Source of the DNA: an uncultured Alphaproteobacteria bacterium
GTDB lineage: Bacteria > Pseudomonadota > Alphaproteobacteria > DATDPM01
Assembly: GCA_963841995.1 (NCBI GenBank)
Contig: CAWJEX010000003.1
Coordinates: 154,081 to 218,080, forward strand
Direction: 5' to 3'
DNA: 64,000 nt
Shown here: in pieces, positions 1 to 62,272 of the stretch
Layout of the letters: every line of letters starts with the position of its first letter
How positions within the stretch are numbered: position 1 is the first letter of the stretch
Position numbers and translations under genes: made by a program
Notes under the pieces: model-generated
Databases searched by the model: none
Told to the model about the DNA's origin: nothing
What the model saw: only the letters and a program-made list of their open reading frames with translations

Positions 1-1084
1 CGGCGACGGCGCTGCGAACGGGGCCTGGCCGAGCACCCGGAGCGACCCGACCAGAACCTCTGGCTTCCCATCGAAGCCGGTGGCGCGCAACGCGGAGACC
101 ACGAATTCATTGGGCGTCTTGACCTTCGGCAAAGGCTCCGCCCAAGTCTCTGGGGAGGAGACGAGTGCCAGCGCCAGGGCCTTCAGATTGCCGTCGGTTT
201 TCCGGAAAATATCGGTAAGCCGGGCGACCGCCGCCGGCGCCGGCTCATCGGCCATGAAGTGGCGGGCAAGCTTGGTGGCGACATGCTTGGCGGTCGCGGG
301 ATGGCGAGCAATAACCGCCAGCGCGCGCGTCCCTTCCTCTTCTCCCACTTCCCGATATTCGACGCCTAGAAGTGTCTTGTCGCCCGGTTCGTGAATCCGG
401 TCATAGAACTGGAAACTCCGATTGTCGGCTTGTTCGCCGTCTTTCAGCCTCACCACCGACCAGCCGGTCAGAATCTTGGCGAATTCACGCACGTCGGTTT
501 GGCTATAGCCGCCATCGACGCCGACCGTGTGCAGTTCGAGAATTCTCGCGCGCCAGATTTTCATTGAGCCCTTTGTTTTGGCGCCTCCCCGCAATCGAAT
601 CGGGACCGATCGACTGGGCGTTGTCGAGATAGAGCAGCATCGCCGGATGGCGGGTCGAAGCCGCGAGCATGTCGAGGAAACGGCCGGTCACATGGGGCCG
701 AATCGCCTCGCGTTCGAAGGCGCCGGAAAGTCCCAGGATCTTCGGGCGCTGCACGGAAACGGTGAAGTGATTCGACCAGAAGGCAACGAACCGTTCGAGG
801 ACCGGCTGCTTGGTCTCGATTTGATTCTGGGTTCGCGCCGCGGCCTCGGCCATATAAGCATCGCGCAAATTGCCGCGGATCATTTTTTGAAAATCGGGAT
901 TTTTCTTGTCTTGGGAAAAACGCTCGATTTCGGCCAGGCGCTGGCGGCCCGGCGCCAGATCGGCGAGGCGCGGCGGCAAGCCTGCTGGAAGTTCTAGCTG
1001 CTGGATGATCCAGCCGCGCGGAATCCGAAGCGGCCGCGGCCAACTCGCCGGGCTTGGCACCAAGCCCGAATCGGTTGACTGCAA
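1..1084 (-). CDS. DUF1800-family protein, runs off the window edge at its 3' end, with an apparent 1-nt frameshift near 541-547
   Basis: The ORF 503..1084 carries the DUF1800 signatures 'FWSNHFTV' and 'LYLDN...GLNENLARE'. Reading the minus strand below 540 in another frame continues the family pattern with no stop down to position 1: 'LELHTVGVDGGYSQTDVREFAKILTGW...FQFYDRIHEPGDKTLLGV...'. Confidence 0.6.
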
Positions 1085-1102
1085 TGGCGGCTTCCGGCGC
1101 GA

Positions 1103-1588
1103 TCACCGGTTGGGCGCTCCCCTATCCTTGTCCCATTCGGCGAGAGTTTTGCGCGCATCCGGCGAGAGATGGGAAATGGCGTCGGCCAGGGCGCTATGCA
1201 TTACTTTCTGCATGTCCTGCATCCGGCCGCGAACCTCCCCGAACGCCGCTTCCAGCGCGGTGCGATCGAAAGGATCGGCGGCGACGGCATCGCGTACCTT
1301 TTGCCGCGCATCGCGGACTTGCTTTTCCGCTGTCGCCATTTCCGCCCGGTATTCCACAATCACCGACAGGAATTGATCGCGGTCGGCGGCCGGCAGGCTG
1401 CTCGCCATGCGGTCGATGAAGGCGTGCATCCCGGGCCGTTCATTGGGCGAGCGCTGATCGGCGAATTCATGGGGCGGACGATGAAACCGGTGCGCGACCA
1501 CGAATCCGCCGATGAACAAATTGAGGCCGAGCGAAAGGAAGAGCGCCAGGAGCACCCATTTCGCGGCACGGGGATCGAGCGTCACCAT
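1103..1588 (-). CDS. Spy/CpxP-like periplasmic protein (LTxxQ-type periplasmic stress/heavy-metal sensor family)
   Basis: It has an N-terminal signal/TM segment, then helical LTxxQ-like repeats ('ADRDQFLSVI', 'LSPDARKTLAEW'). It is the last gene of the sigma/anti-sigma operon. Confidence 0.55.
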   Translation of the reverse strand: MVTLDPRAAKWVLLALFLSLGLNLFIGGFVVAHRFHRPPHEFADQRSPNERPGMHAFIDRMASSLPAADRDQFLSVIVEYRAEMATAEKQVRDARQKVRDAVAADPFDRTALEAAFGEVRGRMQDMQKVMHSALADAISHLSPDARKTLAEWDKDRGAPNR

Positions 1589-2016
1589 GGCGCGACGTCC
1601 GTGACCGTGAAGCCTGAAACTTGATCGGCGGCTTCGGCCTGAGTGCCCAAACTATAATCCGCGGCCAAGCCCATCCAGCCGACGATGCATCCGGCGGCAG
1701 CGGCAGCGGCAAGACCGGCGAAGCCCGGCCAAGCTCCGGTCAATGGAAATTTCCGGCGCGACGATTGGGGCAAGCGGTGAACGTTGCCCGTCGCGTCCCT
1801 GATCGCGGCAACAACGCCCTTCGCGTCCAGGCGCAGCTCGATCGCCTGGCCCGCTTCGTTCAGCAGCGAATCGAGCCGGCGCGCTTCGTCACGAAGGCGC
1901 TGCGCCTCCCGCGAATTGGCCAATAGCGCCAGTGCTCCATCCCGTTCGGTTTCCGGCCACCGCGCCGGATCCGCGCCAAAGGCGTCAAGAATTTGCCGCA
2001 AGCGTTCAATTGTCAT
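1582..2016 (-). CDS. anti-sigma factor (single-pass membrane protein)
   Basis: It starts at the ATG at 2016 ('MTIERLRQILDAFGADPARWPETER...'), which matches the 'AYGADPxRWP' N-terminus of alphaproteobacterial ECF anti-sigma factors. It has one TM helix ('WPGFAGLAAAAAAGCIVGWMGLAA'). Its start overlaps the sigma ORF stop by 4 bp (ATGA). Confidence 0.55.
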   Translation of the reverse strand: MTIERLRQILDAFGADPARWPETERDGALALLANSREAQRLRDEARRLDSLLNEAGQAIELRLDAKGVVAAIRDATGNVHRLPQSSRRKFPLTGAWPGFAGLAAAAAAGCIVGWMGLAADYSLGTQAEAADQVSGFTVTDVAPW

Positions 2017-2624
2017 CGTCGTTCCTCCTGCTCCCCTTCCCCTACTTGTCCACTGGCGCCTATTTGTCCATCGGTGCCATGAGATCGGCCAAATTTTCCC
2101 GCAACGTTCGCCGGGCCCGGACCAGCAGCGATTTCGATCGCCCCCACGCTGATCTCGAGAATCTCCGCCGCCTCGATATTGCTCACGCCTTCGAAATGGC
2201 AGAGCGTCAAGGCTGTGCGTTGACGGTCCGGCAATTGGGCAATCGCCGTTTGAACCCGGCGCGAGGTTTCGTTCGCCGCCAATATCTCGAGACCGTCCGG
2301 CTTCGAGTCCGCGATTTCGCCCGCCGCTTCGATCGGCGCCGGCGTCGGCTTCCGGGTGCGGTCGATGCAGAGATTCATGAGCACCCGGTAAAACCAGGTC
2401 GAAAACCGGGCACCGCCCTCGGCTTCGGGCTGCCACTCGGGAGCCTTGAGCCAAACCCGCAAAAACGCCTCCTGCACCACATCTTCCCCTTCGGCCTTGT
2501 TGCCAACGACCCGGGCGGCGAGCTTGCCCGCGTTAACCAGATGCCGTTCGACCAGTTTGGCAAAAGCCGCGTGATCGCCGGTACCCGAAAGCCGCATGAG
2601 CTCGTCGTCGGAACGTTCGTCCAT
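2013..2624 (-). CDS. ECF (sigma-70 family) RNA polymerase sigma factor with an aberrant C-terminus from an apparent +1 frameshift at ~2131-2135
   Basis: Regions 2 and 4 of sigma-70 are recognisable ('VQEAFLRVW...', 'LPDRQRTALTLCHFEGVSNIEAAEILEISVGAIE'). The canonical end of region 4.2, 'SKSLLVRARRTLRENLADLMAPMDK*', is encoded in the adjacent frame and stops at 2060. The annotated frame instead gives a Gly-rich 39-aa tail. Confidence 0.75.
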   Translation of the reverse strand: MDERSDDELMRLSGTGDHAAFAKLVERHLVNAGKLAARVVGNKAEGEDVVQEAFLRVWLKAPEWQPEAEGGARFSTWFYRVLMNLCIDRTRKPTPAPIEAAGEIADSKPDGLEILAANETSRRVQTAIAQLPDRQRTALTLCHFEGVSNIEAAEILEISVGAIEIAAGPGPANVAGKFGRSHGTDGQIGASGQVGEGEQEERR

Positions 2625-2750
2625 GGGCGATTCGGACCTAATGATTTATTCACGGAAGCGTGAGCGATTCCCTGCGCCGGCAATTACGCCGGGCGGGCGC
2701 CCCAGACTAAGGTTAATCGGGGATTAAGAAAATCCCGGGTTTGGAGGGGG

Positions 2751-3398
2751 CTAATTAGGCTGGGCGTCGGGCAATTTGCCGCCACCGGGCTGGCTGGGGG
2801 CAGGCTTGGCAGCGGGCGCCACAGGTGCCGTGGTGCTGACTGGCCGAACGCCAGGGGCGGCCACCGGGACGGCCGCCGGGGGTGCTACCCTGGGCGCTGT
2901 CTCGGCCTCAGTTTCGATCTTGGCCCAATTGGCGTCGGCAGTTTCGATAAATCCCTCGATTTCGGCCAACCACTGCTTTCTTACCGCCTCGGACGTATTG
3001 AGATAGAGCTTGCCGTCGAGGATCGTCCAAATCGTGGGATCGGCTACGGCCGGGGCGCCTTCGGCGACCGCATAGGCCGAATAGCCGCCGTATTGCGGCG
3101 CGTATTTCTCGGGCTTGGCCTTAAAGGAATCGCGGTGAGTGGGATCCGAGAACAGCCACGTTGCCCCCGCCCATTGATAAGCAAATTCTTTCGATCCCGC
3201 CTCGGCGTGGCCGTCGGCGAAATAGGCGACCGGGTCGTAGCCCTTTATCGCGACATTGTCGGCTCCCGACACGCTGATGTTGGATATGCCGTTCGGGGAG
3301 CCAGCAGCGGCTTGGCCAACCGCCATCAGCACTACGATCGCAGCGATGGCCGCGAGCTCGTGATCCCGCCGCAAATTAATCATGATCGGAAACTCCAC
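2751..3398 (-). CDS. secreted YHS-domain protein (putative metal-binding)
   Basis: It has a signal peptide and a YHS motif ('AIKGYDPVAYFADGHAEAGSKEFAYQWAGATWLF'). The C-terminal tail is Pro/Ala-rich. Confidence 0.6.
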   Translation of the reverse strand: MEFPIMINLRRDHELAAIAAIVVLMAVGQAAAGSPNGISNISVSGADNVAIKGYDPVAYFADGHAEAGSKEFAYQWAGATWLFSDPTHRDSFKAKPEKYAPQYGGYSAYAVAEGAPAVADPTIWTILDGKLYLNTSEAVRKQWLAEIEGFIETADANWAKIETEAETAPRVAPPAAVPVAAPGVRPVSTTAPVAPAAKPAPSQPGGGKLPDAQPN

Positions 3399-3579
3399 TT
3401 ATTGCACCGGCCTATGACCGCCGCTTTCACCTTGTATAGGAATGGGCCTCCGCCCGAAGACAATCAACACCTCCGGGTCTTTGCGGAATAGCCGATCCAT
3501 CAATAGGCGGCCTGGAAATATAACACGGGCCTGAAAAACCGGCCGCGACGGTCCACGCTTATCGCCGCGTCGAGCGGAA

Positions 3580-4116
3580 TTATTCGGCTTCGAGACGAAG
3601 CTGGCCGCGGCGCGGACCGCACGGGCGGCAATAGCAATCATGAATTTTCCGCCGAGGCGGGCGGACGAAATAATAGCGCTCGCCGCAATTGCCGCAGGCC
3701 CAGGTGACGACCGCATGAGCCCTGGCGGAAATATAGTCGATTTGATGCCGGACCACCGGATCTTCGCCGAGCAGTTCCATCGTCTGTTCCCAGCGCCAAT
3801 CATGCCCGCAATTCCGGCCCCAGTTGAGGTCGGCCAAGATATGGGCGCACTCGTGGAGAAAGGTGGTGTTGCGATCGCGCTCACGCCCGGCGCGCATCAG
3901 CGCGCCGTTCAAAACGATCCGCCGCTCCCGGGTATAGGCGGCGCCCGCTTGGATTTTGGCCCGCCGGCTCGCTTCGACGATCGTCCGCAAGCACTCGGTA
4001 TAGGCGTAGCCGAGCAACGCCGCCTTGAGCAGCCGCCCTTTAACTCTCCAGGCTGTGGCGAGTTCCGCCACCGTGCCCAAAACGTCCGTCGTCGATCCGT
4101 TTTTCATGATCCGCAA
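3580..4116 (-). CDS. SprT-like zinc metalloprotease-domain protein
   Basis: It carries an HExxH motif ('LHECAHILA') and a C-terminal Cys-rich zinc ribbon ('CGNCGERYYF...CYCRPCG'). Confidence 0.55.
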   Translation of the reverse strand: MRIMKNGSTTDVLGTVAELATAWRVKGRLLKAALLGYAYTECLRTIVEASRRAKIQAGAAYTRERRIVLNGALMRAGRERDRNTTFLHECAHILADLNWGRNCGHDWRWEQTMELLGEDPVVRHQIDYISARAHAVVTWACGNCGERYYFVRPPRRKIHDCYCRPCGPRRGQLRLEAE

Positions 4117-4402
4117 ATCTTAGCCGAGCCGAGGCCCTCGCGAAAAGAGACCGCCGCAGGATTCGTCCCTTGACTTTTGTCCTCGATTCGCTCCCCGGCC
4201 GGACCGCGGATTTTGGCCGAAAATCCAGTTCCGATTGCGCCCTTTCCAGCCGCACTTTAGTGTAATCCTTAAAGCCGAGCCAAGGGAGCTGCGCCTTTCC
4301 GGCCGGCGCGCAGCGCCCTTGGTTGGGGATTAACGGTCAAATCGGGGAGACCGGACATCCGTCCTATTTTCACGCAACTCAATTCCGACGCGGGGTAGAG
4401 CC

Positions 4403-5788
4403 ATGGATTTGTGGCGCACCAAAGCGCTGAACGCCGACGTTGTTCACGAGGGGCAGCTTCGGCGGGTGTTGGGCCCGGTCGATCTCACCGTGCTCGGCAT
4501 CGGGTGCATCATCGGCGCCGGCATTTTCGTTCTCACCGGACACGCGGCGGCGACGTCCGCCGGCCCGGGCATCGTTCTGTCCTATGTGATGTCGGGCTTG
4601 GCCTGCGCCTTCAGCGCGCTGGCCTATGCCGAGCTTGCCTCGGCGATCGGCGGCTGCGGCAGCGCCTATGGCTATGCCTATGCCGGCCTCGGCGAAATCA
4701 TGGCCTGGATCATCGGCTGGGATTTGCTTTTGGAATACGGCGTATCGGTGCCCACCGTGGCCTTGGGTTGGGCGAGCTATATGAACGACGCACTGACCAC
4801 GATGGGGCTGCCGATTCCCGACTCTCTCCTCCACAGCCCTTACGACCACGCCCAGGCCGGCATGGTGAATTTGCCCGCGGCGCTCATCATTCTGGCGCTG
4901 AGCGTCTTGCTCTGCATCGGAGTCAAGGTAAGCGCGCATTTCAACGCGCTGATGGTGACGGTGAAGCTCTGCGTGCTCGCCCTGTTCATCGCGATTGCGG
5001 TATTCGACGTCAATCCGGCGAATTGGCACCCTTTCATGCCCTTCGGCTGGGGCGGGGTGATGCAGGGTGCGGCCCTGATTTTCTTCGCCTATATCGGATT
5101 CGACGCGGTGTCGACCGCCGCCGAAGAAGCGCGCAATCCCCAGCGCGATCTGCCGATCGGAATTCTGGCCTCGCTCGCGATATGCACGGTGCTTTACATC
5201 GTCGTCTCGGGATTGCTGACCGGCATCGTTCCCTATTCGACGCTCAATGTGGCAAGCCCGGTGGCTGATGCGCTGATCCGCGCCGGGCACCGGATCGCGG
5301 GGGCTGCGATCGCGGTCGGAGCGATCGCGGGGCTCACGACCGTCATGCTCGTTCTCTATTACGGATTGACGCGAATCTTTTTGGCGATCGCCCGCGACGG
5401 ATTGCTGCCGCCGGTTTTTTCCGCGGTCAACAAAACAACGAAAACACCGATCCGCGTCATTCTGGTGAGCGGCGTGATCATGGCGTTGATCGCCGGCTTC
5501 ACCCCCATCGAGGGCGTGGCGCAGCTGGTGAATATCGGAACGCTCGCCGCCTTTGCATTGGTTTGCGCCGGCGTCATCGTGCTGCGCGCGACCGAGCCCG
5601 ACCTGCCTCGGCCGTTCAAGACCCCGTGGTCGCCGCTGATCCCGGTTCTCGGGATCGTCTTTTGTCTCTATCTGATCTACAGCCTGCCGGTCGTAACCTG
5701 GCTGCGCTTCGTGATCTGGATGGCGGTCGGCTTTGTCGTCTATTTCGGCTATTCGCATCGGAACAGCCTGCTCGCTCGGCAGTCCTAG
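4403..5788 (+). CDS. APC-family amino acid permease
   Basis: The 461-aa product has ~12 TM helices and the usual N-terminal 'LGPVDLTVLGIGCIIGAGIFVLTG' motif of amino-acid/polyamine transporters. Its TAG stop lies inside the MITE inverted repeat. Confidence 0.85.
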   Translation: MDLWRTKALNADVVHEGQLRRVLGPVDLTVLGIGCIIGAGIFVLTGHAAATSAGPGIVLSYVMSGLACAFSALAYAELASAIGGCGSAYGYAYAGLGEIMAWIIGWDLLLEYGVSVPTVALGWASYMNDALTTMGLPIPDSLLHSPYDHAQAGMVNLPAALIILALSVLLCIGVKVSAHFNALMVTVKLCVLALFIAIAVFDVNPANWHPFMPFGWGGVMQGAALIFFAYIGFDAVSTAAEEARNPQRDLPIGILASLAICTVLYIVVSGLLTGIVPYSTLNVASPVADALIRAGHRIAGAAIAVGAIAGLTTVMLVLYYGLTRIFLAIARDGLLPPVFSAVNKTTKTPIRVILVSGVIMALIAGFTPIEGVAQLVNIGTLAAFALVCAGVIVLRATEPDLPRPFKTPWSPLIPVLGIVFCLYLIYSLPVVTWLRFVIWMAVGFVVYFGYSHRNSLLARQS

Positions 5789-6013
5789 AGCATGATCTTG
5801 TCAGTTTGAATTGGCTGCGTTGCGCTTTTGGTGCGGCGATCCGCCAGGCGCGCCAAGCCCGCCAAGGCACAACCCCAAGGGCCCGGGTCTTTTGCCGCCG
5901 CGGGTTCGTCGAAGCGCTCGCCCGTAGTCCCTGCTACGCGCTTCGCGCTTCTCCTGCCCGGGGCGCAAAATACCTCCGGTGCAGCCGGTTCCAACTGACA
6001 AGATCATGCTCTA
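5786..6013 (+). mobile_element. MITE copy 1 (228 bp), with perfect 21-bp TIRs TAGAGCATGATCTTGTCAGTT and a GC-rich palindromic core
   Basis: The left end is tagagcatgatcttgtcagtt and the right end aactgacaagatcatgctcta. It is 228 bp, like copy 4 at 62045-62272. A TA dinucleotide sits at both element boundaries. Confidence 0.75.
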
Positions 6014-6055
6014 AGCCGCTATACGACGTCCGTCGGTCGCTTCATTGTCCGACCG

Positions 6056-6732
6056 TTAGATTTATCGAATACCGCCGTTCCGCCGCCTGCGGGAGAACAC
6101 GAGCCAGACGCCGCCAACTCCCAAAAAGAGCAGCCCCAACAGCGCGACCGGCCCAAGATTTCGTCTCCGGCGCGATGCGTTCGGCCACCGCGCTCGCAAC
6201 GGCGCCGGAAAACAGGATCGTGGGGGCCCAGAGGAAGGCCCACGCAACATTCGCCAGCCAAAAGCGCCCGCTGCATCCGCCTGATGCCGGCAGCCAGCGG
6301 GATCACCGCCCGCACCGGTCCGAAGAACCGTCCGATGAAGACGCTTTTCTGGCCATGCCGTTTGAAAAATGCGATCCCGCGCGGGATCAGCTCCGAATAT
6401 TTTGTGAACGGCCAAACGCGGTGCACCTCGTGACCGAATTGCCAGCCAATCCAGTAAGAAATGCCGTCGCCGAGGATGGCCCCGACGACGACGGCGATCA
6501 GAACTGGCCACACGGGCAGTATGCCCCGCGGCAACAGCGCTCCCGCCGCCAGCAGGATCACCGTGCCGGGGATCTGCAGACTGAGGAAGGCAAGCGATTT
6601 GCCAAACGCCGCCGCCAAGATGATCAGCGCCGCCCAAGCCGAGTACGTCGCGATGAAATCGGCCACGACATGAGTGGTGTGCTCCACGATTTGCCAGAAT
6701 AAACCAAGCGAATGGCGGCGACACCATCGCAT
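6056..6732 (-). CDS. DedA/SNARE-associated family membrane protein, with an apparent 1-nt frameshift at ~6266-6270
   Basis: The N-terminal ~150 aa are typical DedA ('GDGISYWIGWQFG', 'FGPVRAVIPLAAGI'). After 'RRMQR' the family continuation 'RFWLANVAWAFLWAPTILFSGAVAS...' is read in the adjacent frame and ends at 6056. The shift sits in a GGG run. Confidence 0.7.
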
Positions 6733-6872
6733 TTCGAGATTGCGTGTCGAATTTACAGGCGGCTTTGTCGTCTATTTAGGCTATTCGCATCGGAACAGCC
6801 TGCTCGCTCGGGCGGGCCAGCGCGGCCGATTTTCGAGTTGACGCGCGGCCCGCCCGGATAGCACCGCGGAAC

Positions 6873-7067
6873 TTAGACAGCCTCGCGCAGCGGGCTTTCC
6901 AGCCATGACGCCGGAATATTCGGCAGAATGAATTTGTGCCCGTTGAGATCGACCGCGACGTCGACTTGCGGCGTCCGTTCGATCGTCTTGCCGACAACTC
7001 TTCCGGTCAGTTGTATGTCCAATCGTACCGTATCATTGATGTCCATTGTCCACGCTCCATCCCCCAC
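6873..7067 (-). CDS. hypothetical small protein (possibly PRC-barrel-like)
   Basis: The 64-aa ORF reads 'VVGKTIERTPQVDVAVDLNGHKFILPN'. Support is weak. Confidence 0.3.
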   Translation of the reverse strand: MGDGAWTMDINDTVRLDIQLTGRVVGKTIERTPQVDVAVDLNGHKFILPNIPASWLESPLREAV

Positions 7068-7352
7068 TTCTGTTTCGTTGACGATCCGCCCTTTATCCGC
7101 CGCGTCAACCGCGCGGCGTGTTGTTAGACGTCTTATTGTGAGGCTTCTTTCGCCGCGTCATCCGCGCAGCGCTGACCTTCAATGTGGCCGATGAAAGGAT
7201 TAATTACACGCGCTTTTAAATAAAATTTTACCGATTAGTAACCTTAACGGCGCGCGCGTTATGGTTAATGGAGCCGGTGCTTAAAGACGGCGTAATCGGC
7301 ATCGCCGCGCCGCCGTGATGGCGGTGCGGTATTTTGACGGAACTTTGTCTTC

Positions 7353-8914
7353 CTAAACCTCCCCACGGATAAATCCGGGGGGTTCTGAAGAGCTGGCGGG
7401 CGATTTTCTCCCGCCTTTATCGGTTCTCCGCGGCCCTCCCGGATGAGCAATGCCCACCGGTACGCCGTCCGCAGCCTCGCCGATAACTATACCCTTCTTC
7501 GACGGGCGACCCGCTCCGACGGTCTTGCGGCCGTGGGGTGCCGGAAAACCGGACCCGCTTGCAGGTTGGTGTTCGCTTGACGCCGCCCGTCGCAGCAGCG
7601 GTTTCGCAGCCGGAAAGGCCAGTGTGGCCTGCCGGGCGTCAAGCGTGTTCAAGCTCACATGGCGAGCCAGAAAAGCGGAATAGAGATCGCGCTGTATTGC
7701 GCCGGAACCGTCGCCCAGGACATGCAGGCGCTGGCTCAACGGCTTTTTCGCGAAATCGCCGGTGGTGTGGTCGAACTGGCTAAGACAGGTCGTGCTGGTT
7801 TTGAACTCGATCAGCTGTCCGCCCGCGCGTTTGGTCTTGTATCGAAGAATGGCGAGAAAAGAACCGCAGCCGCGGACCTTAGTGCTGCGCCCGAAAGATT
7901 TCTGGAAGCCTGAATAAGACAGCTTCTCGGTCTTGATGGTCTTGCCTTGAGCTAGAATGCGGTTGGCAAGCTCGCCATGCGCCCTTTTGCGCTCAGCCGC
8001 CAGCCGGCGTTCGCGCTCGCGTCTTTTTGCGGCAAGGCGCTGATAGCGCTTCGAGCGGTTCCAGAGTTTACGTCCCTTCTTTGCTGTGCCGTTATCATTG
8101 AAGTTGTCTGGATTGGTCGCCCGCCTGGATCGGTCCATCGCGCGCTCGATGCGCCGCATTTGCTTCCAAGGCTGCTCGACGGTCGGGCAGAAAGATTCCA
8201 GCGTCGCATCGCGTCCGGATACCGCGGCAATCGTGCTGGGCCCGATATCCAGACCGACCACGCCATCACTTGCCGGATATTTGACGGTGCATCGCCTTCC
8301 TGGATCAGCTGCACCGACCAGCGGAGACTCCCGCGTATCTCGCGCCGGATCAGGCGGCAATACTTGGTATTGGTTTGCAACGCCTCGCCCTGCCATCGAT
8401 CGCCGGGTGCCAGCATTGCCGTTAGACGCAGTCCTGACCACTCCACAGCGCCGTCCCTGAACCGTATACCGGCCTTATTGGTCTTGCCTTCGACCGAATG
8501 AAGTTCACCAAAGTGCTTGAATCGCGGCCGCCCGCGTTTGCCAAAGGCGTAGTGCCGAACCGCCCGGAAGGCCCGTAGCGCCGCCTTCTGGGTTTCGTTG
8601 GACGACAGATGGCAGCCGACCCAGCAGTTGTTCTTGCAGGCGATCGCATAGCGGTCCGCCATCGAGGATTTGAAATCGAAGCGTTGGATAACCGATTTGA
8701 ACAGATCGGATCTGTCCTGGCCTTTGGGCATTGCCCGCGCCCGCCGCCAGTCGCGGCTTTCCCGCATCAAGGCTAGAACTCGCAAACATTCGCCCAGCAC
8801 CGCGTTGTAAATCTGACGGGCGGCGTCCAGGCGCACCGAGAGGTCGCGACCATCCCCCGCCGTCGTGTTTAACGGCAATTCCAGGACAAAGCTGGAAACG
8901 GAGGTGCTGGCCAT
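7353..8914 (-). pseudogene. tnpB: tnpB (IS605 OrfB, RuvC-like RNA-guided nuclease family), frameshifted near 8265-8290
   Basis: The N-terminal part ('FVLELPLNTTAGDGRDLSVRLDAARQIYNAVLGE') is in one frame. The RuvC-I motif 'VVGLDIGPSTIAAVSG', the zinc-finger region and 'RDLYSAFLARHV' are in another frame. Confidence 0.7.
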
Positions 8915-9308
8915 TCAGACCTTCTTCTGGTTGGCGACATACTGCTTGATGATTTCCAGCGGCGCGCCACCTACCGTGGCTACGAAATAACTGTTGGTCC
9001 ACAATGTGGGCAGCCTGGTCCGCAGACTTCTGAAATTCCTGACGCAAAAGCCTGGACGACCATCCCTTCATCGCCTTCACCAAGCGATGAATGCCAAACT
9101 GCGGATCGGCGTCGACCAGCACATGCACATGATCCGGCATGATCTCCATCTCGATCAGCTGGCATTTATGGGCTGCCACGACATCGATGAGGATCTGCTT
9201 CAAGCGGATCTCCACATCGCCGACAAGCACATTGCGGCGGTACTTCGGGCACCACACCACATGATATTTGCAGGAAAACACCACATTGTGGTTCGAGCGG
9301 TAATCCAT
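8915..9308 (-). pseudogene. tnpA: tnpA (IS200/IS605 Y1 transposase), frameshifted near 9030-9035
   Basis: 'MDYRSNHNVVFSCKYHVVWCPKYRR...HVHVLV...' is the HUH/Y1 transposase. The conserved C-terminus 'RSLRTRLPTLWTNSYFVATVGGAPLEIIKQYVANQKKV*' is read in the adjacent frame. Its TGA is immediately followed by the tnpB ATG. Confidence 0.7.
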
Positions 9309-9389
9309 GCGGCATTATATATCATGCCGCAGCATATGGTACAATACAGGAACGCTATATCACGCGCTTTCCTCCCCATGGCTGAAGCG

Positions 9390-9711
9390 AGGGGCTTCTC
9401 GCGCAGATTCGGTGATTCATTGCCTGGGCCCGGTTTACGGCCGCGACAATCCTTCGGCCGAATTGCTCGCGTCCTGCTATCGCAATGCGCTAAAGCTCGC
9501 GGAGGAACACGGCATCGCTTCCATCGCCTTCCCCGCGATCTCGACCGGCGTGTTCGGTTATCCGAAGGACGAGGCCGCCGCGGTCGCGCTTAAAACCGTG
9601 ATCGCCGAATTGCCGCGGCTCGCATCGGTCAAGCAGATCCGATTCGTGCTGTACGGGGCGGATGATCTGGAAATCTACGAGCGGGCGATGGAGGAATGGG
9701 CGCAGCAGTAG
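9390..9711 (+). pseudogene. macro-domain (O-acetyl-ADP-ribose deacetylase-like) gene, 3' fragment only. The 5' ~75 codons are missing where the IS abuts.
   Basis: 'VIHCLGPVYG...LLASCYRNALKLAEEHGIASIAFPAISTGVFGYPKDEAA...VKQIRFVLYGADDLEIYERAMEE' matches the C-terminal two-thirds of YmdB-type macro domains. There is no GDIT/DAIVNAAN N-terminal region upstream. Confidence 0.6.
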
Positions 9712-9717
9712 CAACCG

Positions 9718-11538
9718 CTACGCCGCGCTCTTCTTCGCTTCTCGGCGCCGCAACCCTTTCTCGAGCAGGCGCTTGCGGAGCCGCACCGATTTCGGCGTGA
9801 CTTCGACCAGCTCGTCGTCGGCGATATAGGCGATCGATTTTTCCAAAGTCATTTGAATCGGCGGAGTCAGGATCACCGCGTCGTCCTTGCCGGAGGCGCG
9901 GACATTGGTGAGCTGCTTGCCCTTGGTCGGGTTGACGTCGAGATCGCCGCCCCGCGCATGCTCGCCGATGATCATGCCGGGATAGACCTTCGTCCCCGGC
10001 TCGATAAACAGCGCGCCGCGCTCCTGGATGTACCAAAGCGCGTAAGCGACCGCCGAACCGGTTTCGGTCGAAACCAAAGTCCCCGTGCGGCGCGCCGGGA
10101 TCTGGCCTTTCAACGGCGCGTAACCGTGGAATAGCCGGTTCATGACGCCGGTGCCCCGCGTATCGCCGAGGAATTCGCCGTGATAGCCGATCAGGCCGCG
10201 CGAGGGCGCGAGGAAAACCAAGCGCAGCTTGCCGCCGCCGGTCGGGCGCATGTCGCGAAGCTCCGCCTTGCGCTGGGACAGCTTGTCCACCACCGTGCCG
10301 GAGAATTCCTCGTCCACGTCGATGGTGGCTTCCTCGATCGGCTCCATCTGCTGGCCGGTTTCGGGATCGTTGCGGTAAAGAACGCGCGGGCGCGAGATCG
10401 CCAGCTCGAAGCCTTCGCGGCGCATGGTCTCGATCAAAACTGCAAGCTGAAGTTCGCCGCGGCCGGAAACCTCGAACGCGCCGCGCTCGTCGCTCGGCGT
10501 CACCTTGATCGCCACATTGCCTTCGGCTTCCTGCATCAACCGGTCGCCCAGTAGGCGCGAGGTGACCTTATCGCCCTCTTGTCCCGCCAGCGGCGAATCG
10601 TTGATCGAAAACGTCATGGCGAGAGTCGAGGGATCGATCGGCTGGGCAGGAAGCGCTGTTTCAACGGACGGCTCGCAAATCGTATCGGCCACCGTCGCTT
10701 TGGAAAGCCCGGCGATGGCGACGATATCGCCCGCCTCGGCTTCTTCCACCGGCACGCGCTCCAATCCGCGGAAAGCCAGCAATTTGGTGATGCGGTTCTG
10801 TTCGAGAACGGTACCATCGCGCGACAGCGCCTTGATCGTCATGTTGGGCCGAGCAATTCCGGTTTCGATGCGGCCGGTGAGCACGCGGCCGAGATAAGGA
10901 TCGGCTTCGAGCGTGGTCGCCAGCATGGTGAAGGCGCCTTCGGCTTTCACTTTGGGGGCGGGAACGTGGGCAACGATGAGATCGAACAGCGCCGCCATAT
11001 CCTTGCGCTCGCCATCGAGGGTGCGTGAAGCCCAGCCCTGCTTGGCCGAAGCGAACATGGTCGGGAAATCGAGTTGTGCTTCGTTGGCGTCAAGGGCGGC
11101 GAAAAGATCGAACATCGCGCTTTCGACGTCGCTCGCGCGCTGATCGGGGCGATCGACCTTGTTGACGACGACGATGGGTGCCAAGCCCATGCGCAGCGCC
11201 TTGCCGAGCACGAATTTGGTTTGCGGCATCGGTCCTTCGGCGGCGTCCACCAGGATCAGCGCGCCATCAACCATGCCGAGAATGCGCTCCACCTCGCCAC
11301 CGAAATCGGCGTGGCCCGGGGTGTCGACGATATTGATCCGCGTACCGTGCCAAACCACCGAGGTGCATTTGGCGAGAATGGTGATCCCGCGCTCGCGCTC
11401 GATGTCGTTCGAATCCATGGCGCGCTCGGCCACCTTCTCGTTTTCGCGGAAGGTGCCGCTTTGGCGCAGCAGGCAATCGACCAAGGTCGTCTTGCCATGG
11501 TCGACGTGGGCGATGATCGCGATATTACGAAGCTTCAT
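9718..11538 (-). CDS. typA: translational GTPase TypA/BipA
   Basis: The 606-aa product starts '[17 protein letters not shown]' and continues '[14 protein letters not shown]', with the full G-domain and EF-G-like domains. Confidence 0.95.
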
Positions 11539-13105: not shown

Positions 13106-13419
13106 TAGAGCATGATCTTGTCAGTTGGAACCGGCTGCACCGGCGGTATTTTGCGCCGCGGGCAGGAGAAGCGCGAAGCGCGTAGCAGGGACTACGGGCG
13201 AGCGCTTCGACGAACCCGCGGCGGCAAAAGACCCGGGCCCTTGGGGTTGCGCCTTGGCGGGCGCCCGCGGCGTTGCGCCGTTCGGCCGATGCCCCACATC
13301 GCCCCCCGCGCTTTGCGCGCAAACGTTTGCCGGCAAGGCCGGCGGGCTTGGCGCGTCTGGCGGATCGCCGCACCAAAGGCGCAACGCAGCCGATTTCGAA
13401 CCGACAAGATCGTGCTCTA
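13106..13419 (-). mobile_element. MITE copy 2 (314 bp, inverted orientation, ~90-bp internal insertion, degenerate right TIR)
   Basis: It begins tagagcatgatcttgtcagtt and ends ccgacaagatcgtgctcta. The core is the reverse complement of the core in copies 1 and 4. Confidence 0.7.
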
Positions 13420-17755: not shown

Positions 17756-18028
17756 TAGAGCCTGATCTTGTCAGTTGGAACCGGCCGCGCCGGCGATATT
17801 TTGCGCCGCGGGCAGGAGAAGCCCGTAGCAGGGACTACGGGCGAGCGCTTCGACGAATCCCCGGCCGGCAAAAGACCGCCGCCCCTTGGGTTGCGCCTTA
17901 ATGGGCACCCGCGGCGTTGCGCCAAGCCCGCCAGCAAAGCCGGCGGGCTTGGCGCACTTGGCGCGCTTGGCGGATCGCCGCGCCAAAAGCGCAACGCAGC
18001 CGATTCGAACTGACAAAATCAGGCTCTA
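17756..18028 (-). mobile_element. MITE copy 3 (273 bp, inverted orientation, TIR variant TAGAGCCTGATCTTGTCAGTT)
   Basis: The ends are tagagcctgatcttgtcagtt and aactgacaaaatcaggctcta. The core is homologous to copy 2. Confidence 0.7.
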
Positions 18029-39184: not shown

Positions 39185-40348
39185 TTAAAGTCCTGGTTCA
39201 GTGGTCTCAAACGCCCAATCCAGCCAGGCCGGAAGGGCTGAGATATCCGCCAATTCCACGGTTCCGCCGGTCCAAACCCGAAGCCCCGGCGGGGCCGTCC
39301 GGTAGGCATTGATGTCGAAGGCAACACCTTCGGTCTCCAAGAGGCTCGAAATCGCTTTGGCCCGGGCGCGCTTTTGGTCTTCGCCCAACCCCTTCAGCCT
39401 TGAGCCTTCAAGACACATGGAGACAGGTGTTGTGGGCCGGATTTCCGGACGTTGCGGCAGCTGGGCGACCCAATCGCATTGGCTGATCCATTGGTCCAGG
39501 ACCGCGCGATTGGCCTTGGCCCTTTCGATCATCCCGCGCAAACCGCCGATCGATTCGATCCAGGCGAGCGAGAACAGTGCGTCCTCGACGCAAAGCATCG
39601 ACGGCGTGTTGATGACGCCGCCTTCCCACAACATCGGATCGAGCTGGTTGTGTTTTTTCAGCCGGAACAGCTTCGGCACCGGCCAGGCCGGCGTGTAACC
39701 CAGTAATCGTTCGATGGCACGCGGACCCAAGACCAGCATCCCGTGCTGAGCTTCGCCGCCCATCGCCTTCTGCCAGGAAAATGTCGCGGCATCGAGAAGG
39801 TCCCAGGGAATATCCGCCGCGAACACCGCCGCCGTCGCATCGCAGATCGTCAGGCCCTGCCGGGTGTCCGGAATCCAATCGCCGCCGGGAACGCAAACAC
39901 CGGCGGTCGTGCCGGTCCAGGGAAAAACCAGATCCCGCGCCGGATCCCAGCGCGACAGATCGGGCATTTCGCCATAGCAGGATTTGAGCACCCGCACATC
40001 GGGAAGCCGGAGCTCGTCGATGGCGTCCCGCGCCCATTCCTGGCCGAAATAGTCGAAAGCGAGAACGTCCAGCCCGCGCGGCCCCAGCAGATTCCACATC
40101 GCGGCTTCGATGGCGCCGGTGTCGGAGCCGGGCAGAATCGCGATCCGGTGGCTTTCCGGAATCCCGAGCAGCGCGCGGGCTTTCGTCAGCAGCTCCTGCA
40201 GCCGCGCCCGTCCCGCTTCCGAGCGGTGATAGCGCCCGGTCAGCGCCGCGGAAAGCTTGGATGCCTCCCAGCCCGGCGGCTTGGCACAAGGCCCGGAAGC
40301 GAAATGCGGATTTGCCGGCCGGACGGCGGGTTTCGGAGGGTGCGTCAT
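39185..40348 (-). CDS. serC: phosphoserine aminotransferase (SerC, short archaeal/alphaproteobacterial type)
   Basis: 'NPHFASGPCAKPPGW...SHRS..G...' matches the short-form SerC N-terminus. A class-V aminotransferase fold follows. Confidence 0.8.
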   Translation of the reverse strand: MTHPPKPAVRPANPHFASGPCAKPPGWEASKLSAALTGRYHRSEAGRARLQELLTKARALLGIPESHRIAILPGSDTGAIEAAMWNLLGPRGLDVLAFDYFGQEWARDAIDELRLPDVRVLKSCYGEMPDLSRWDPARDLVFPWTGTTAGVCVPGGDWIPDTRQGLTICDATAAVFAADIPWDLLDAATFSWQKAMGGEAQHGMLVLGPRAIERLLGYTPAWPVPKLFRLKKHNQLDPMLWEGGVINTPSMLCVEDALFSLAWIESIGGLRGMIERAKANRAVLDQWISQCDWVAQLPQRPEIRPTTPVSMCLEGSRLKGLGEDQKRARAKAISSLLETEGVAFDINAYRTAPPGLRVWTGGTVELADISALPAWLDWAFETTEPGL

Positions 40349-40533
40349 GGGGGGAATAACTTCGATGCGGGCGGTCAGAATATCAATGCCCATTCGAGCG
40401 CGGTAGGCGTGAGAATCCGGATCGTGGGCCGTGGATCAGTTTCGGCGCGATTGTGCGGCAACCGGCACGGTTTCAGAGTAAAATTTACAAGACTTCTCAA
40501 TTGTATCGTATTTCCAACGATGAGCGGGTTGCC

Positions 40534-41100
40534 ATGGCGCGTCTCCCGAAATCACGCAGGCCGGTCGCAATGAAAGATCTGCCCTTGTCCAAGGTCTACC
40601 AGCTGCTCGAACCGGGCCCGGTGGTTCTGCTGACCACCGCCCGTAAGGGCCGCGCCAATGTCATGACGATGTCCTGGCATATGATGGTCGACTTCGAGCC
40701 GCCGCTGGTCGCCTGCGTGGTCAGCGGCGCCAATCACAGCTTTGCCGCGTTGCAGGCGACCGGGGAGTGTGTGATCGCGATTCCGGCGCGGAAGCTGGCG
40801 CCGATTGTGGTCAACGTCGGCAACTCATCGGGTCGCGACATCGATAAGTTCGACGCGTTCGGTCTGACCCCGGCGCCGGCCGAGCGCGTGGCGCCGCCTC
40901 TGGTGGCAGAGTGTTTCGCCAATCTCGAATGCAAGGTGACGGACCCGCGCTTCGTCAACAAATACAATCTCTTCATCCTTGAGGTGCTTAAGGCCTGGAT
41001 CGATCCGGCGCAGAAGAATCCCAAAACCATCCACCATCACGGCTACGGCACGTTCGTCGTGGATGGCGAGACGATCAAGCTGAAATCCAAGATGCCGTGA
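40534..41100 (+). CDS. flavin reductase-like (FMN-binding split-barrel) family protein
   Basis: 'VVLLTTARKGRANVMTMSWHMMVDFEPPLVACVV' is the signature of the flavin reductase-like domain. Confidence 0.7.
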   Translation: MARLPKSRRPVAMKDLPLSKVYQLLEPGPVVLLTTARKGRANVMTMSWHMMVDFEPPLVACVVSGANHSFAALQATGECVIAIPARKLAPIVVNVGNSSGRDIDKFDAFGLTPAPAERVAPPLVAECFANLECKVTDPRFVNKYNLFILEVLKAWIDPAQKNPKTIHHHGYGTFVVDGETIKLKSKMP

Positions 41101-41359
41101 TGCGCGCCGTCAAAGACTTCGGGCCTCGCAAGGCGGATGAGCCTGCGCTTCGAACAAGGCCCGGAGGCGAAATGCGGATTAGCCGGCCGGACGGCGGGTT
41201 TTGGTGGAGTGGTCATGCAGCGAAGATATCTGAGTGATAGTCAGATTATCACCGCGTTTATGATAGCTGTAGGTGTCAGAGAGATGACGGATTTGACCAA
41301 AGGTGGACCTAGCCAACTCAACGTCTTAACGCAATTGAAACGCAACCTAACAACGAAAC

Positions 41360-41997
41360 ATGACCGACCAGAGTCTAGTCGATCGAGCAAGTGAGATTCT
41401 TGAGAGCGCTAAGCTTCTCGACGCCGCCGTCGTAAATGCCCACGCTTTTTGGATGTTGTTAGGCAACCTAGTCGGACGTCCGCTGATTGCAGGGAAGACC
41501 CACACGCGAAAGCGTTGGATATGGCGCGGGCCGCAATCTTGCGAGCAGAAATTAGTGTACTGATGGCAATCCTCGATCCTGCAGATTGGCGAGGTAATCG
41601 AGCGAGTATTGGGCATATCGTAAAGGAGCTAAGAGACGAGCGGCTCTGGGCCCTCCTGCTATCGCGCCGCGAGGGTCAAACAGTGACCCGAAACGCGGCA
41701 AAACTCGCAGAGTTACAGAAGGGCTACAAATGCGTATGTGAAAACGAGTTACTTCAGCGCGTTAAACGATCACGAAACGATTCAATCGCGCATCTTCTCA
41801 GACCCGACATACCAACGCCATCCGTGGAACTCGCCGACGTTTTTTCTCTTCAAAATGAAGCAGAACGGCTCGTGATAACTTTGTTTGAAGGATTAGGAGG
41901 CGGCGAGCCTCAATTTATTGCTGCTCGGGAATCGATTCTTACAAGGGCTGAATTGTTTTGGGACACGTATTTTACTGGGATGCGACGATCGACATAG
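41360..41997 (+). CDS. hypothetical protein in a low-GC islet (frameshifted; possible HEPN-like Rx4-6H motif)
   Basis: The ORFs 41360..41563 and 41449..41997 overlap in different frames and read as one ~210-aa protein. 'RNDSIAH' fits Rx5H. Local GC is clearly lower than in the flanks. Confidence 0.35.
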
Positions 41998-61630: not shown

Positions 61631-62047
61631 ATGGCCCGCGCAATTGTCATTCATTCCTTGGAACACGCCCGCGCTGCGCTCGCCGCTGCCGTGCACCTCC
61701 GCGTCGCGGTCACGCTATGGAGCGCGGAGGGAGCGGCCGGCAATGCCGGGCCGTTGTGGTTCGTCGAGTTGATCAAAGCGGCGGAAGAAGAATTTCCGTC
61801 AGCGACGTTCGCGGCGGTTCTCGATTGCGGCGATGCGCCGGGATACGCGCTCGCGGCTTTGCGCGCCGGGTGCCGTGCGATTCGTTTTAACGGCAAGCCT
61901 GCCGTCGCCGCCAAGATCAAGGCGATCGCCCGTCAATATGGCGCTGTGCTGCATACGGGAAAGCCGGCGAATTCCGGCAAGGCCCTCGATCTGGCCGGCA
62001 AATCCGATCCCCTCACCGCTTGCCGCCAATGGCTGAGCAAGCGCTAG
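61631..62047 (+). CDS. hypothetical protein; its TAG stop is supplied by the MITE TIR
   Basis: The 138-aa ORF ends '...SKR' + tag, where tag is the first 3 nt of the MITE. Confidence 0.4.
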   Translation: MARAIVIHSLEHARAALAAAVHLRVAVTLWSAEGAAGNAGPLWFVELIKAAEEEFPSATFAAVLDCGDAPGYALAALRAGCRAIRFNGKPAVAAKIKAIARQYGAVLHTGKPANSGKALDLAGKSDPLTACRQWLSKR

Positions 62048-62272
62048 AGCATGATCTTGTCACTTCGAATCGACTGCGTTGCGCCTTTGGTGCGGCGATC
62101 CGCTAGGCGCGCCAAGCCCGCCACGGCGCAACCCAAAGGGCCCGGGTCTTTTGCCGCCGCGGGTTCGTCGGAGCGCTCGCCCGTAGTCCCTGCTACGCGC
62201 TTCGCGCTTCTCCTGCCCGCGGCGCAAAATACCGCCGGTGCAGCCGGTTCCAACTGACAAGATCATGCTCTA
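62045..62272 (+). mobile_element. MITE copy 4 (228 bp, same orientation as copy 1 and ~95% identical to it)
   Basis: tagagcatgatcttgtcac...gttccaactgacaagatcatgctcta. Confidence 0.75.

Follow-up and report, generated by a model that had tools for sequence, protein, structure and literature searches.

We analyzed a window of 64,000 nucleotides (nt) from an uncultured alphaproteobacterium (GCA_963841995.1, contig CAWJEX010000003.1, positions 154,081 to 218,080 of the forward strand), in which the 3' end of an amino-acid permease gene is present twice. Positions given below are those of the window unless a relative is named. The permease gene (4403–5788, plus strand; Pfam AA_permease_2, AA_permease, and AA_permease_C) encodes a BcaP-like protein of the APC family with 461 amino acids (aa), which ends in ...LLARQS* (asterisks mark stop codons) and scores under the cut-off of the NCBIfam BcaP model. 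An earlier note, made from the sequence alone, described a direct repeat of about 50 bp of the permease 3' end flanking a miniature inverted-repeat transposable element (MITE) and a frameshifted dedA gene, and took the segment for a cassette-like insertion.

Our repeat search of the window recovered this repeat as 52 nt at 5728–5779 and 6760–6811, with a spacing of 1032 bp and 51 of 52 positions identical, a match far beyond chance. The sequence was as the note had it, and its positions (5737–5783 and 6758–6805) were off by up to 9 nt. No third copy occurs in the 64-kb window. The single mismatch falls in a codon that reads TTC (Phe) in the permease gene and TTA (Leu) in the second copy. Because this Phe is invariant among the homologs with inspected C-termini, the first copy (plus strand, permease codons ...GFVVYFGYSHRNSLLAR) is the working end of the gene, and the second, also on the plus strand, is a relic whose Phe codon has mutated to Leu. 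The description of the second copy as an in-frame permease tail with its own stop was accurate: it lies in frame within an open reading frame (ORF) at 6674–6841 that ends in ...GFVVYLGYSHRNSLLARAGQRGRFSS*. The 980 bp between the copies hold the MITE and dedA, the latter on the minus strand.

Conservation of the locus in relatives

Relatives of the locus were gathered by protein homolog searches and then by exact-protein look-ups, and form three groups: members of the same species with the same layout (L001 and L096), four sister lineages, and outgroups (L082–L095). DNA identity to the window is about 93% for L097 and about 91% for L098; L181 and L182 are more distant (dedA DNA 80–84% identical), and the four sister lineages together span 80–88% for dedA. 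The relic stands in the same place in L001, L096, L097, L098, L181, and L182, and since these are independent assemblies from other samples, an assembly artifact is excluded. Its right junction (...CGG/GCGGGCT..., with a slash at the join) is common to all four sister lineages. On the left, the spacer that runs from the dedA start to the relic (6688–6759) ends in the inner junction ...TTTACAGG/CGGCTTTG, and this left junction (...TTACAGG/CGGCTTTG...) is identical in L097, L098, and L182 and was removed in L181 by a 14-nt deletion. That the same junctions recur in sister lineages whose dedA DNA is 80–88% identical indicates that the duplication is old and was a single event, so a recent origin is not supported. 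The duplicate is indeed conserved in the intergenic region of relatives, which the earlier note had taken as grounds for doubting that it is a remnant of the ORF; it is an ORF remnant nonetheless.

The outgroups, with permeases 82–86% identical, retain the upstream synteny (ADH-SRAP-OsmC-...-sigma70-YHS-SprT-permease). Downstream of the permease they carry ABC transporter genes, a flavin reductase gene, and a Macro gene in L082–L086, a Macro gene directly in L089, DUF1993 in L094, and a 79-aa gene in L092 and L093; the contig of L087 stops within the ABC genes. With upstream synteny kept and downstream content varied, the permease is the last gene of a conserved block beside a variable spot. 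Neither dedA nor the 57-aa ORF described below was found at the permease loci of L082–L095. It follows from this synteny that dedA was added beside the permease in the ancestor of the window clade, and the relic is at least as old. The idea that an insert came in next to the gene end and that the old end stayed behind thus agrees with the outgroups that lack dedA; the idea that the MITE and dedA form one cassette does not agree with L097 and L098, as set out below.

In the window, dedA (6062–6687, minus strand; VTT/SNARE-associated domain, Pfam VTT_dom) is a pseudogene whose reading frame crosses all three frames. Compared with the intact orthologs of 207–219 aa in L097, L098, L181, and L182, it has a +1 indel near 6157–6162 and a -2 indel near 6263–6266, and these frameshifts are restricted to the window strain and its near-identical sister strain (L001, an assembly 99.85% identical). 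A MITE and a frameshifted dedA do lie between the copies, as had been noted. One dedA homolog (P0129, 63% identity) was considered as a pointer to the donor and was set aside for its unrelated context. In L182, an ABC ATPase gene (1061–1378 of that locus) stands in place of the permease after dedA, and the relic is nonetheless present.

The MITE (5788–6011, 224 bp; inverted repeat search) has 33-nt arms that are 91% complementary, holds no ORF, and is flanked by TA target duplications at 5786–5787 and 6012–6013. It entered the permease stop codon TAA at its TA, and the G with which the MITE begins regenerated a TAG stop; the corresponding empty site is intact in L097 (CGG CAA TCC TAA GCC). L098 has a longer MITE in this same TA, inverted relative to that of the window (reverse complement, 6639–6954), which also regenerates a TAG stop, so that two independent insertions of one MITE family must be assumed. 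Another MITE in L098 sits in a TA just after the relic (reverse complement, 7752 onward), where L097 and L182 have the relic TAA stop. Since L097 has dedA and the relic without a MITE, and the MITE of L098 is reversed, the MITE is a later, separate event and is not the cause of the 52-nt repeat. In the comparison with syntenic regions that the earlier note suggested, dedA was absent from the outgroup site and the MITE from L097. With three further copies at 13106–13419, 17756–18028, and 62045–62272, the window holds four MITEs of 224–310 bp, each flanked by TA. They resemble other TA-targeting MITEs in size, terminal inverted repeats, TA duplications, copy number, and lack of ORFs, and differ in that no autonomous partner element with these ends is present in the window. 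The family may be linked to IS630/Tc1-mariner.

The two copies of the permease end also differ in what follows them. Orthologs with 82–86% identity end in QPA*, QGA*, QAA*, QAAAAE*, or RAAAAE*, and among the six closest outgroup tails, five have a Gln directly after Arg or Lys (QPA*, QGA*, QAA*, QAAAAE*, and QAAAE*; the sixth is RAAAAE*). The working tails, QS* in the window, L097, and L098 and QV* in L181, keep this Gln. Junction alignment shows that the relic continues instead with GCG GGC TAA in L097 and L182 and GCG GGC TGA in L181 (AG*); counted in codons, this stop is at the same offset as that of the working gene. In the window these old tail codons (6812–6820, plus strand) read GCG GGC CAG, the stop having mutated to CAG, and the relic ORF therefore extends to ...FSS*. 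None of the 6 nt before the stop is identical between the working copy and the relic tails (0/6), whereas the preceding 52 nt are at least 96% identical. A similarity of the relic's right flank to the L082 tail RAAAAE*, with one base removed, was discarded as indistinguishable from chance similarity of GC-rich sequence.

That right flank reads GCGGGCTAA and leads into a strong, conserved hairpin (6808–6857), which overlaps the last codons of the relic and lies between the relic stop and the stop of a convergent ORF of 57 aa. The predicted fold of the window hairpin has -38.5 kcal/mol (z = -4.55); for three relatives the values are -29 to -38 kcal/mol (z = -3.8 to -4.6), and the outer 9-bp stem is invariant; a consensus fold of the intergenic RNA between the 57-aa ORF and dedA gave no covariation support beyond this stem. 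From its fold and position, the hairpin is probably an old bidirectional terminator. The 57-aa ORF (6873–7046, minus strand) is oriented as dedA, convergent with the permease, and has no Pfam or NCBIfam match. Its protein is 95–98% identical in L097, L181, and L182, across lineages with DNA 80–93% identical, and it is probably a real small gene that may be co-transcribed with dedA. Relic, hairpin, and 57-aa ORF are together arranged like a gene end and a convergent gene with a bidirectional terminator between them. Given an AG* stop at the same offset followed by a conserved hairpin and a convergent gene on one side, and QS* or QV* tails that keep the outgroup Gln on the other, both copies look like genuine permease ends.

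Further downstream, an insertion of the IS200/IS605 type (7353–9405) carries a Y1 transposase with a Pfam match and a large second ORF that is split over two frames and has no Pfam match. The element is absent from L097, which has about 630 nt there instead, including the 5' part of a Macro-domain gene, and the Macro ORF of the window (9307–9711) is therefore truncated. The permease of L097 is called as a 250-aa fragment only (7675–8427 of that locus), which could be a frameshift or an assembly error. Over window positions 1–8660, L001 (GCA_049280315.1, 99.85% identical) differs by 10 substitutions and three single-base indels. Eight of the substitutions have T in the window where L001 has C, always on the same strand, and such a one-sided C/T bias might stem from deamination or be an artifact of sequencing or of the consensus.

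Concerted evolution of the two copies

Within each genome, the working end and the relic are nearly identical, with 51/52 matches in the window, 50/52 in L097, and 52/52 in L098. In L181 the copies agree throughout the right-hand 18 nt, and the relic is decayed on its left. There are five substitutions that are specific to a lineage and yet occur in both copies of one genome, at columns 30, 31, 34, 42, and 49 of the 52 nt. L098 has G at column 30 and A at column 34 in both copies, and L181 has G at column 42 in both. At column 49 the window and L182 have T and the others G. Column 31 is T in the window and L182 and C in L097 and L098; in L181 it is C in the working copy and G in the decayed relic. 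As the shared junctions indicate a single duplication, substitutions mirrored in this way require repeated gene conversion between the copies.

Purifying selection on the relic does not account for this pattern. Divergence between lineages is as high in the relic as in the spacer next to it (47/52 identical for the relic, 65/72 and 62/72 for the spacer), so homogenization, and not purifying selection, explains the identity of the copies. An unusual conservation of the relic had first been suspected from L182 (51/52 to the window relic) and was dropped, as the L182 spacer is equally close (68/72). These alignments show that the near-identity of the copies reflects gene conversion, as judged from sequence, and not youth.

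Duplicated gene ends at serC and in the outgroup

The earlier note had pointed to the same architecture at serC, and the likeness is real. The serC gene (39185–40348, minus strand), for phosphoserine transaminase (NCBIfam NF002841, 552 bits against a cut-off of 477), is a second gene with a duplicated end, here the 5' end. Our repeat search found a 78-nt repeat with copies at 40279–40356, the working 5' end with the start codon and 23 codons, and at 41147–41224, a relic with an ATG and 23 codons, both on the minus strand. The copies are 83% identical, with a 48-nt core at 96%; seven of the 10 differences in the relic are at third codon positions, and the window holds no third copy. The sole gene between them, on the strand opposite to serC, encodes a flavin reductase (40453–41100, plus strand; Pfam Flavin_Reduct). 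It is 75% identical to the flavin reductase found downstream of the permease in L082–L086 (9254–9781 in L082), between the ABC genes and the Macro gene. The presence of the same flavin reductase in different variable spots of related genomes shows that such small genes move between spots. Directly beyond the serC relic lies an AT-rich segment (41225–41997, about 52% GC compared with about 62% around it), with an ORF of 182 aa that matches HEPN AbiU2 (29.9 bits, cut-off 26.8). From these features, the segment is probably a small islet of defense genes between serC and thiC.

A third case was found in the closest outgroup, L092 and L093, which have a permease relic of independent origin (1584–1960 in L092, 1619–1995 in L093). 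Here the last 38 nt of the permease gene, stop included, recur after a single antisense gene for a membrane protein of 79 aa. The relic is followed by a short GC-rich inverted repeat (CCCTCCC...GGGAGGG) whose fold is no more stable than that of shuffled sequence (z = -1.0). Five of the seven differences in the L093 relic are at third codon positions. In L092 the middle of the relic is closer to the working copy than in L093, which suggests partial homogenization by conversion. Among 91 permease loci, a relic was present in the window clade and in L092 and L093 only. The mostly synonymous differences in these parallel relics are what would be expected if a relic was once the coding end of a diverged allele.

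The three inserts (dedA, flavin reductase, and the 79-aa gene) are each antisense to the duplicated gene. They share a position at the edge of a conserved block, which for the permease is ADH...permease and for serC is a putative one, with adjacent genes that read as purA- and hisZ-like in translation. They share no end motif, with chance 9–13-mers the only matches. The proposal of a mechanism shared with serC was not sustained in its original form, as no common end motif, inverted repeats, or recombinase was found; the common factor is general recombination at the edges of conserved blocks.

Origin of the relic and comparison with known systems

The duplicated segment belongs to a conserved anchor gene and the insert lies between its copies, as in a scar of recombination. 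No recombinase was found in or next to the MITE-free insert of 755 bp in five lineages, as judged from Pfam scans of neighboring ORFs and gene content. The insert also lacks terminal inverted repeats and att-like motifs, the only inverted repeat between the window copies being that of the MITE itself. The absence of a recombinase, inverted repeats, and att-like motifs from the dedA block favors general recombination over a dedicated element.

We therefore regard it as fairly likely that the relic is a scar from recombination that joined two alleles with different downstream content, and that it was later homogenized with the working end. The second copy would then be what remains of the 3' end of an older or alternative permease allele after an event in the ancestor of a small clade. 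One parental arrangement would have been permease(...QS*) convergent with dedA, and the other permease(...AG*), a terminator hairpin, and the convergent 57-aa gene. One crossover would have been homologous, inside the conserved permease, and the other join illegitimate, just upstream of dedA. This could have come about by single-crossover (Campbell-type) integration of a circularized fragment with about 60 nt of permease end and dedA, or by homology-facilitated illegitimate recombination; it is this exact route, and the involvement of two different alleles, that we infer. The age of the relic, the identity of its junctions, the separate MITE event, the decay of dedA, and the concerted evolution are shown by the sequences. 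The outcome would be an intact permease, dedA, and then a 61-nt orphan permease end. Afterwards, the 52-nt copies, about 0.8–1 kb apart, exchanged sequence repeatedly by gene conversion and so remained alike within genomes and different between them. Later, independent changes in the window strain were insertion of the MITE in the TA of the permease stop, two frameshifts in dedA, loss of the relic stop and of the Phe codon, and the IS200/IS605 insertion further downstream; the region is now decaying in this strain.

Several points weigh against this scenario. Neither parental arrangement (permease(AG*), hairpin, and 57-aa gene without dedA; permease and dedA without the relic) was found among the 91 permease loci, nor among the listed matches of our genome and metagenome scans, all of which have at most 68% identity. 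Any divergence that the alleles once had in the 52 nt has been lost to gene conversion, so an in-place duplication may also account for this locus. The AG* tail of the relic lacks the Gln that is typical of the permease clade, and its in-frame stop at the same offset could be a coincidence (about 5%). The third-position bias of the parallel cases is modestly significant (12/17 combined). Finally, dedA in L182 is flanked on its other side by the ABC ATPase gene, which shows further rearrangement.

An in-place duplication within one genome, involving no second allele, is the alternative that fares best, and we consider it unlikely. It could have proceeded by tandem duplication of the segment from permease tail to dedA followed by deletion of the second dedA, by a template switch or during break repair, with 52 nt copied from a site at a distance of 0.8 kb, or through a very long target-site duplication at the insertion of dedA. 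The 96–100% identity of the copies within every genome, the sharp repeat ends, and the lack of a parental arrangement are all in its favor, and gene conversion has hidden the original state. However, such a duplication predicts either an identical continuation or random sequence on one side. Instead, the relic goes on with two different codons, a stop at the same offset, and a conserved terminator-like hairpin, and in the working copy the repeat is followed by Gln, which matches the outgroups. The tandem-duplication route also requires two precise events. A long target-site duplication is opposed by an insert without terminal inverted repeats, and no transposon is known to make a 52-nt duplication.

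We think it improbable that the working end arrived as a replacement permease end on a small element that an integrase placed at a specific site and that later shrank to dedA alone. The model for this would be prophage e14 in icd of E. coli K-12, which has a 163-bp pseudo-icd' beyond its far border, together with Rac, which is inserted at the 5' end of ttcA (PMC6379469). The layout is alike: the insert supplies a replacement end and leaves the gene intact, the original chromosomal end remains as a short direct repeat at the far border, and both 3'-end and 5'-end versions exist, as they do here in the permease and serC. Those elements, however, are prophages with integrases and att sites, whereas the inserts studied here are single ordinary genes (dedA, a flavin reductase, and a 79-aa membrane protein), and neither an integrase nor another recombinase was found within the 755-bp insert or beside it in the five lineages. 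The permease insert amounts to exactly one gene and a spacer, the three inserts have no end motif in common, and no presence/absence polymorphism with precise ends was seen.

There is a slim chance that something less familiar is at work. The relic might not be inert, with antisense RNA pairing that couples two membrane-protein genes, or the cases might be products of a recurring, undescribed kind of single-gene insertion at gene ends through about 40–80 nt of homology, a pattern that three cases fit, two beside the permease (dedA and the 79-aa gene) and one beside serC (the flavin reductase).

Retention of the relic for a function has very little to recommend it in our view. Within an mRNA of the 57-aa gene and dedA, the relic would be perfectly antisense, over 52 nt, to the permease mRNA at its 3' end, and the co-variation of the copies would reflect selection for pairing; alternatively, the repeats would serve as handles for reversible loss of dedA. 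Consistent with this, the relic lies in a 185-nt gap between two co-oriented genes, the copies co-vary in four lineages, and the relic has persisted through about 20% DNA divergence. Yet it diverges between lineages as fast as the neighboring spacer, its left half is decayed and partly deleted in L181, and the mismatches within genomes (C/A, G/T, and C/T) are not compatible with wobble pairing. It has no promoter-like site and no Rfam match: a scan of 5600–7400 gave no sigma-70-like promoter, with terminator-like matches within genes or irrelevant, and Rfam on 5000–10000 returned sub-threshold noise only. Gene conversion is the simpler account of the co-variation.

The remaining classes were rejected: a transposon with target-site duplication, by the absence of any end motif shared by the 755-bp insert of L097 and the other two inserts, the absence of inverted repeats other than the MITE's own between the window copies, the 52-nt length of the duplication, and the MITE's separate TA duplication; a diversity-generating retroelement, considered since the sole mismatch is an A in the relic, by the lack of a reverse transcriptase among the scanned ORFs around the locus, with one of eight adenines differing in the window and mismatches of G/T and C/T in L097; and an integron gene cassette, by the lack of an integrase and of a shared imperfect inverted repeat at the insert ends.

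If a recombination scar is the right interpretation, the locus offers a clean natural example of how an accessory gene can join the margin of a conserved block while the gene at the border stays intact, together with the scar that results. For a fragment as short as these 52 nt, concerted evolution with the parent gene can persist between lineages with 10–20% divergence in the neighboring DNA, and taking the identity of the copies at face value would misdate the duplication as recent. There is also a warning for annotation, in that such repeats may be misread as target-site duplications of a mobile cassette, a later MITE bundled with an older insertion, and a relic ORF called as a gene.

Concerted evolution by gene conversion between short repeats is familiar from tufA and tufB and from the silent pilS copies and pilE. 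Like those systems, the permease ends show lineage-specific changes in both copies of a genome; the differences are that the tract here is only 52 nt, that one partner is a non-coding relic, and that there is no sign of the exchange being used for variation. The displaced end itself recalls the orphan 3' ends of Rhs, contact-dependent inhibition (CDI), and type VI secretion system (T6SS) effector loci, in which old ends are moved downstream by incoming modules, share short homology with the main gene, and can recombine with it (PMC5361080). Those orphans encode alternative toxin domains with immunity genes under selection, whereas the permease tail comprises two residues and gives no sign of function.

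The closest parallel is with Campbell-type integration and homology-facilitated illegitimate recombination. In conjugation experiments with E. coli, single-crossover integration of a re-circularized fragment was the commonest outcome, above homology-facilitated illegitimate recombination, and the integrants had 109–950 bp of the homologous gene end duplicated on either side of the insert (PMC3240628). As in these experiments, and in the work of de Vries & Wackernagel (2002) and of Prudhomme et al. (2002), both cited through PMC5361080, foreign DNA at the permease is joined beside a homologous anchor gene, part of the anchor is duplicated beyond the insert, and no machinery for recombination is encoded by the insert itself. 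Unlike there, the homology is about 52–61 nt, the event is ancient and inferred, and the donor or recipient arrangement was not found. The feature adds an example to a type of event that is already known and reveals no new mechanism.

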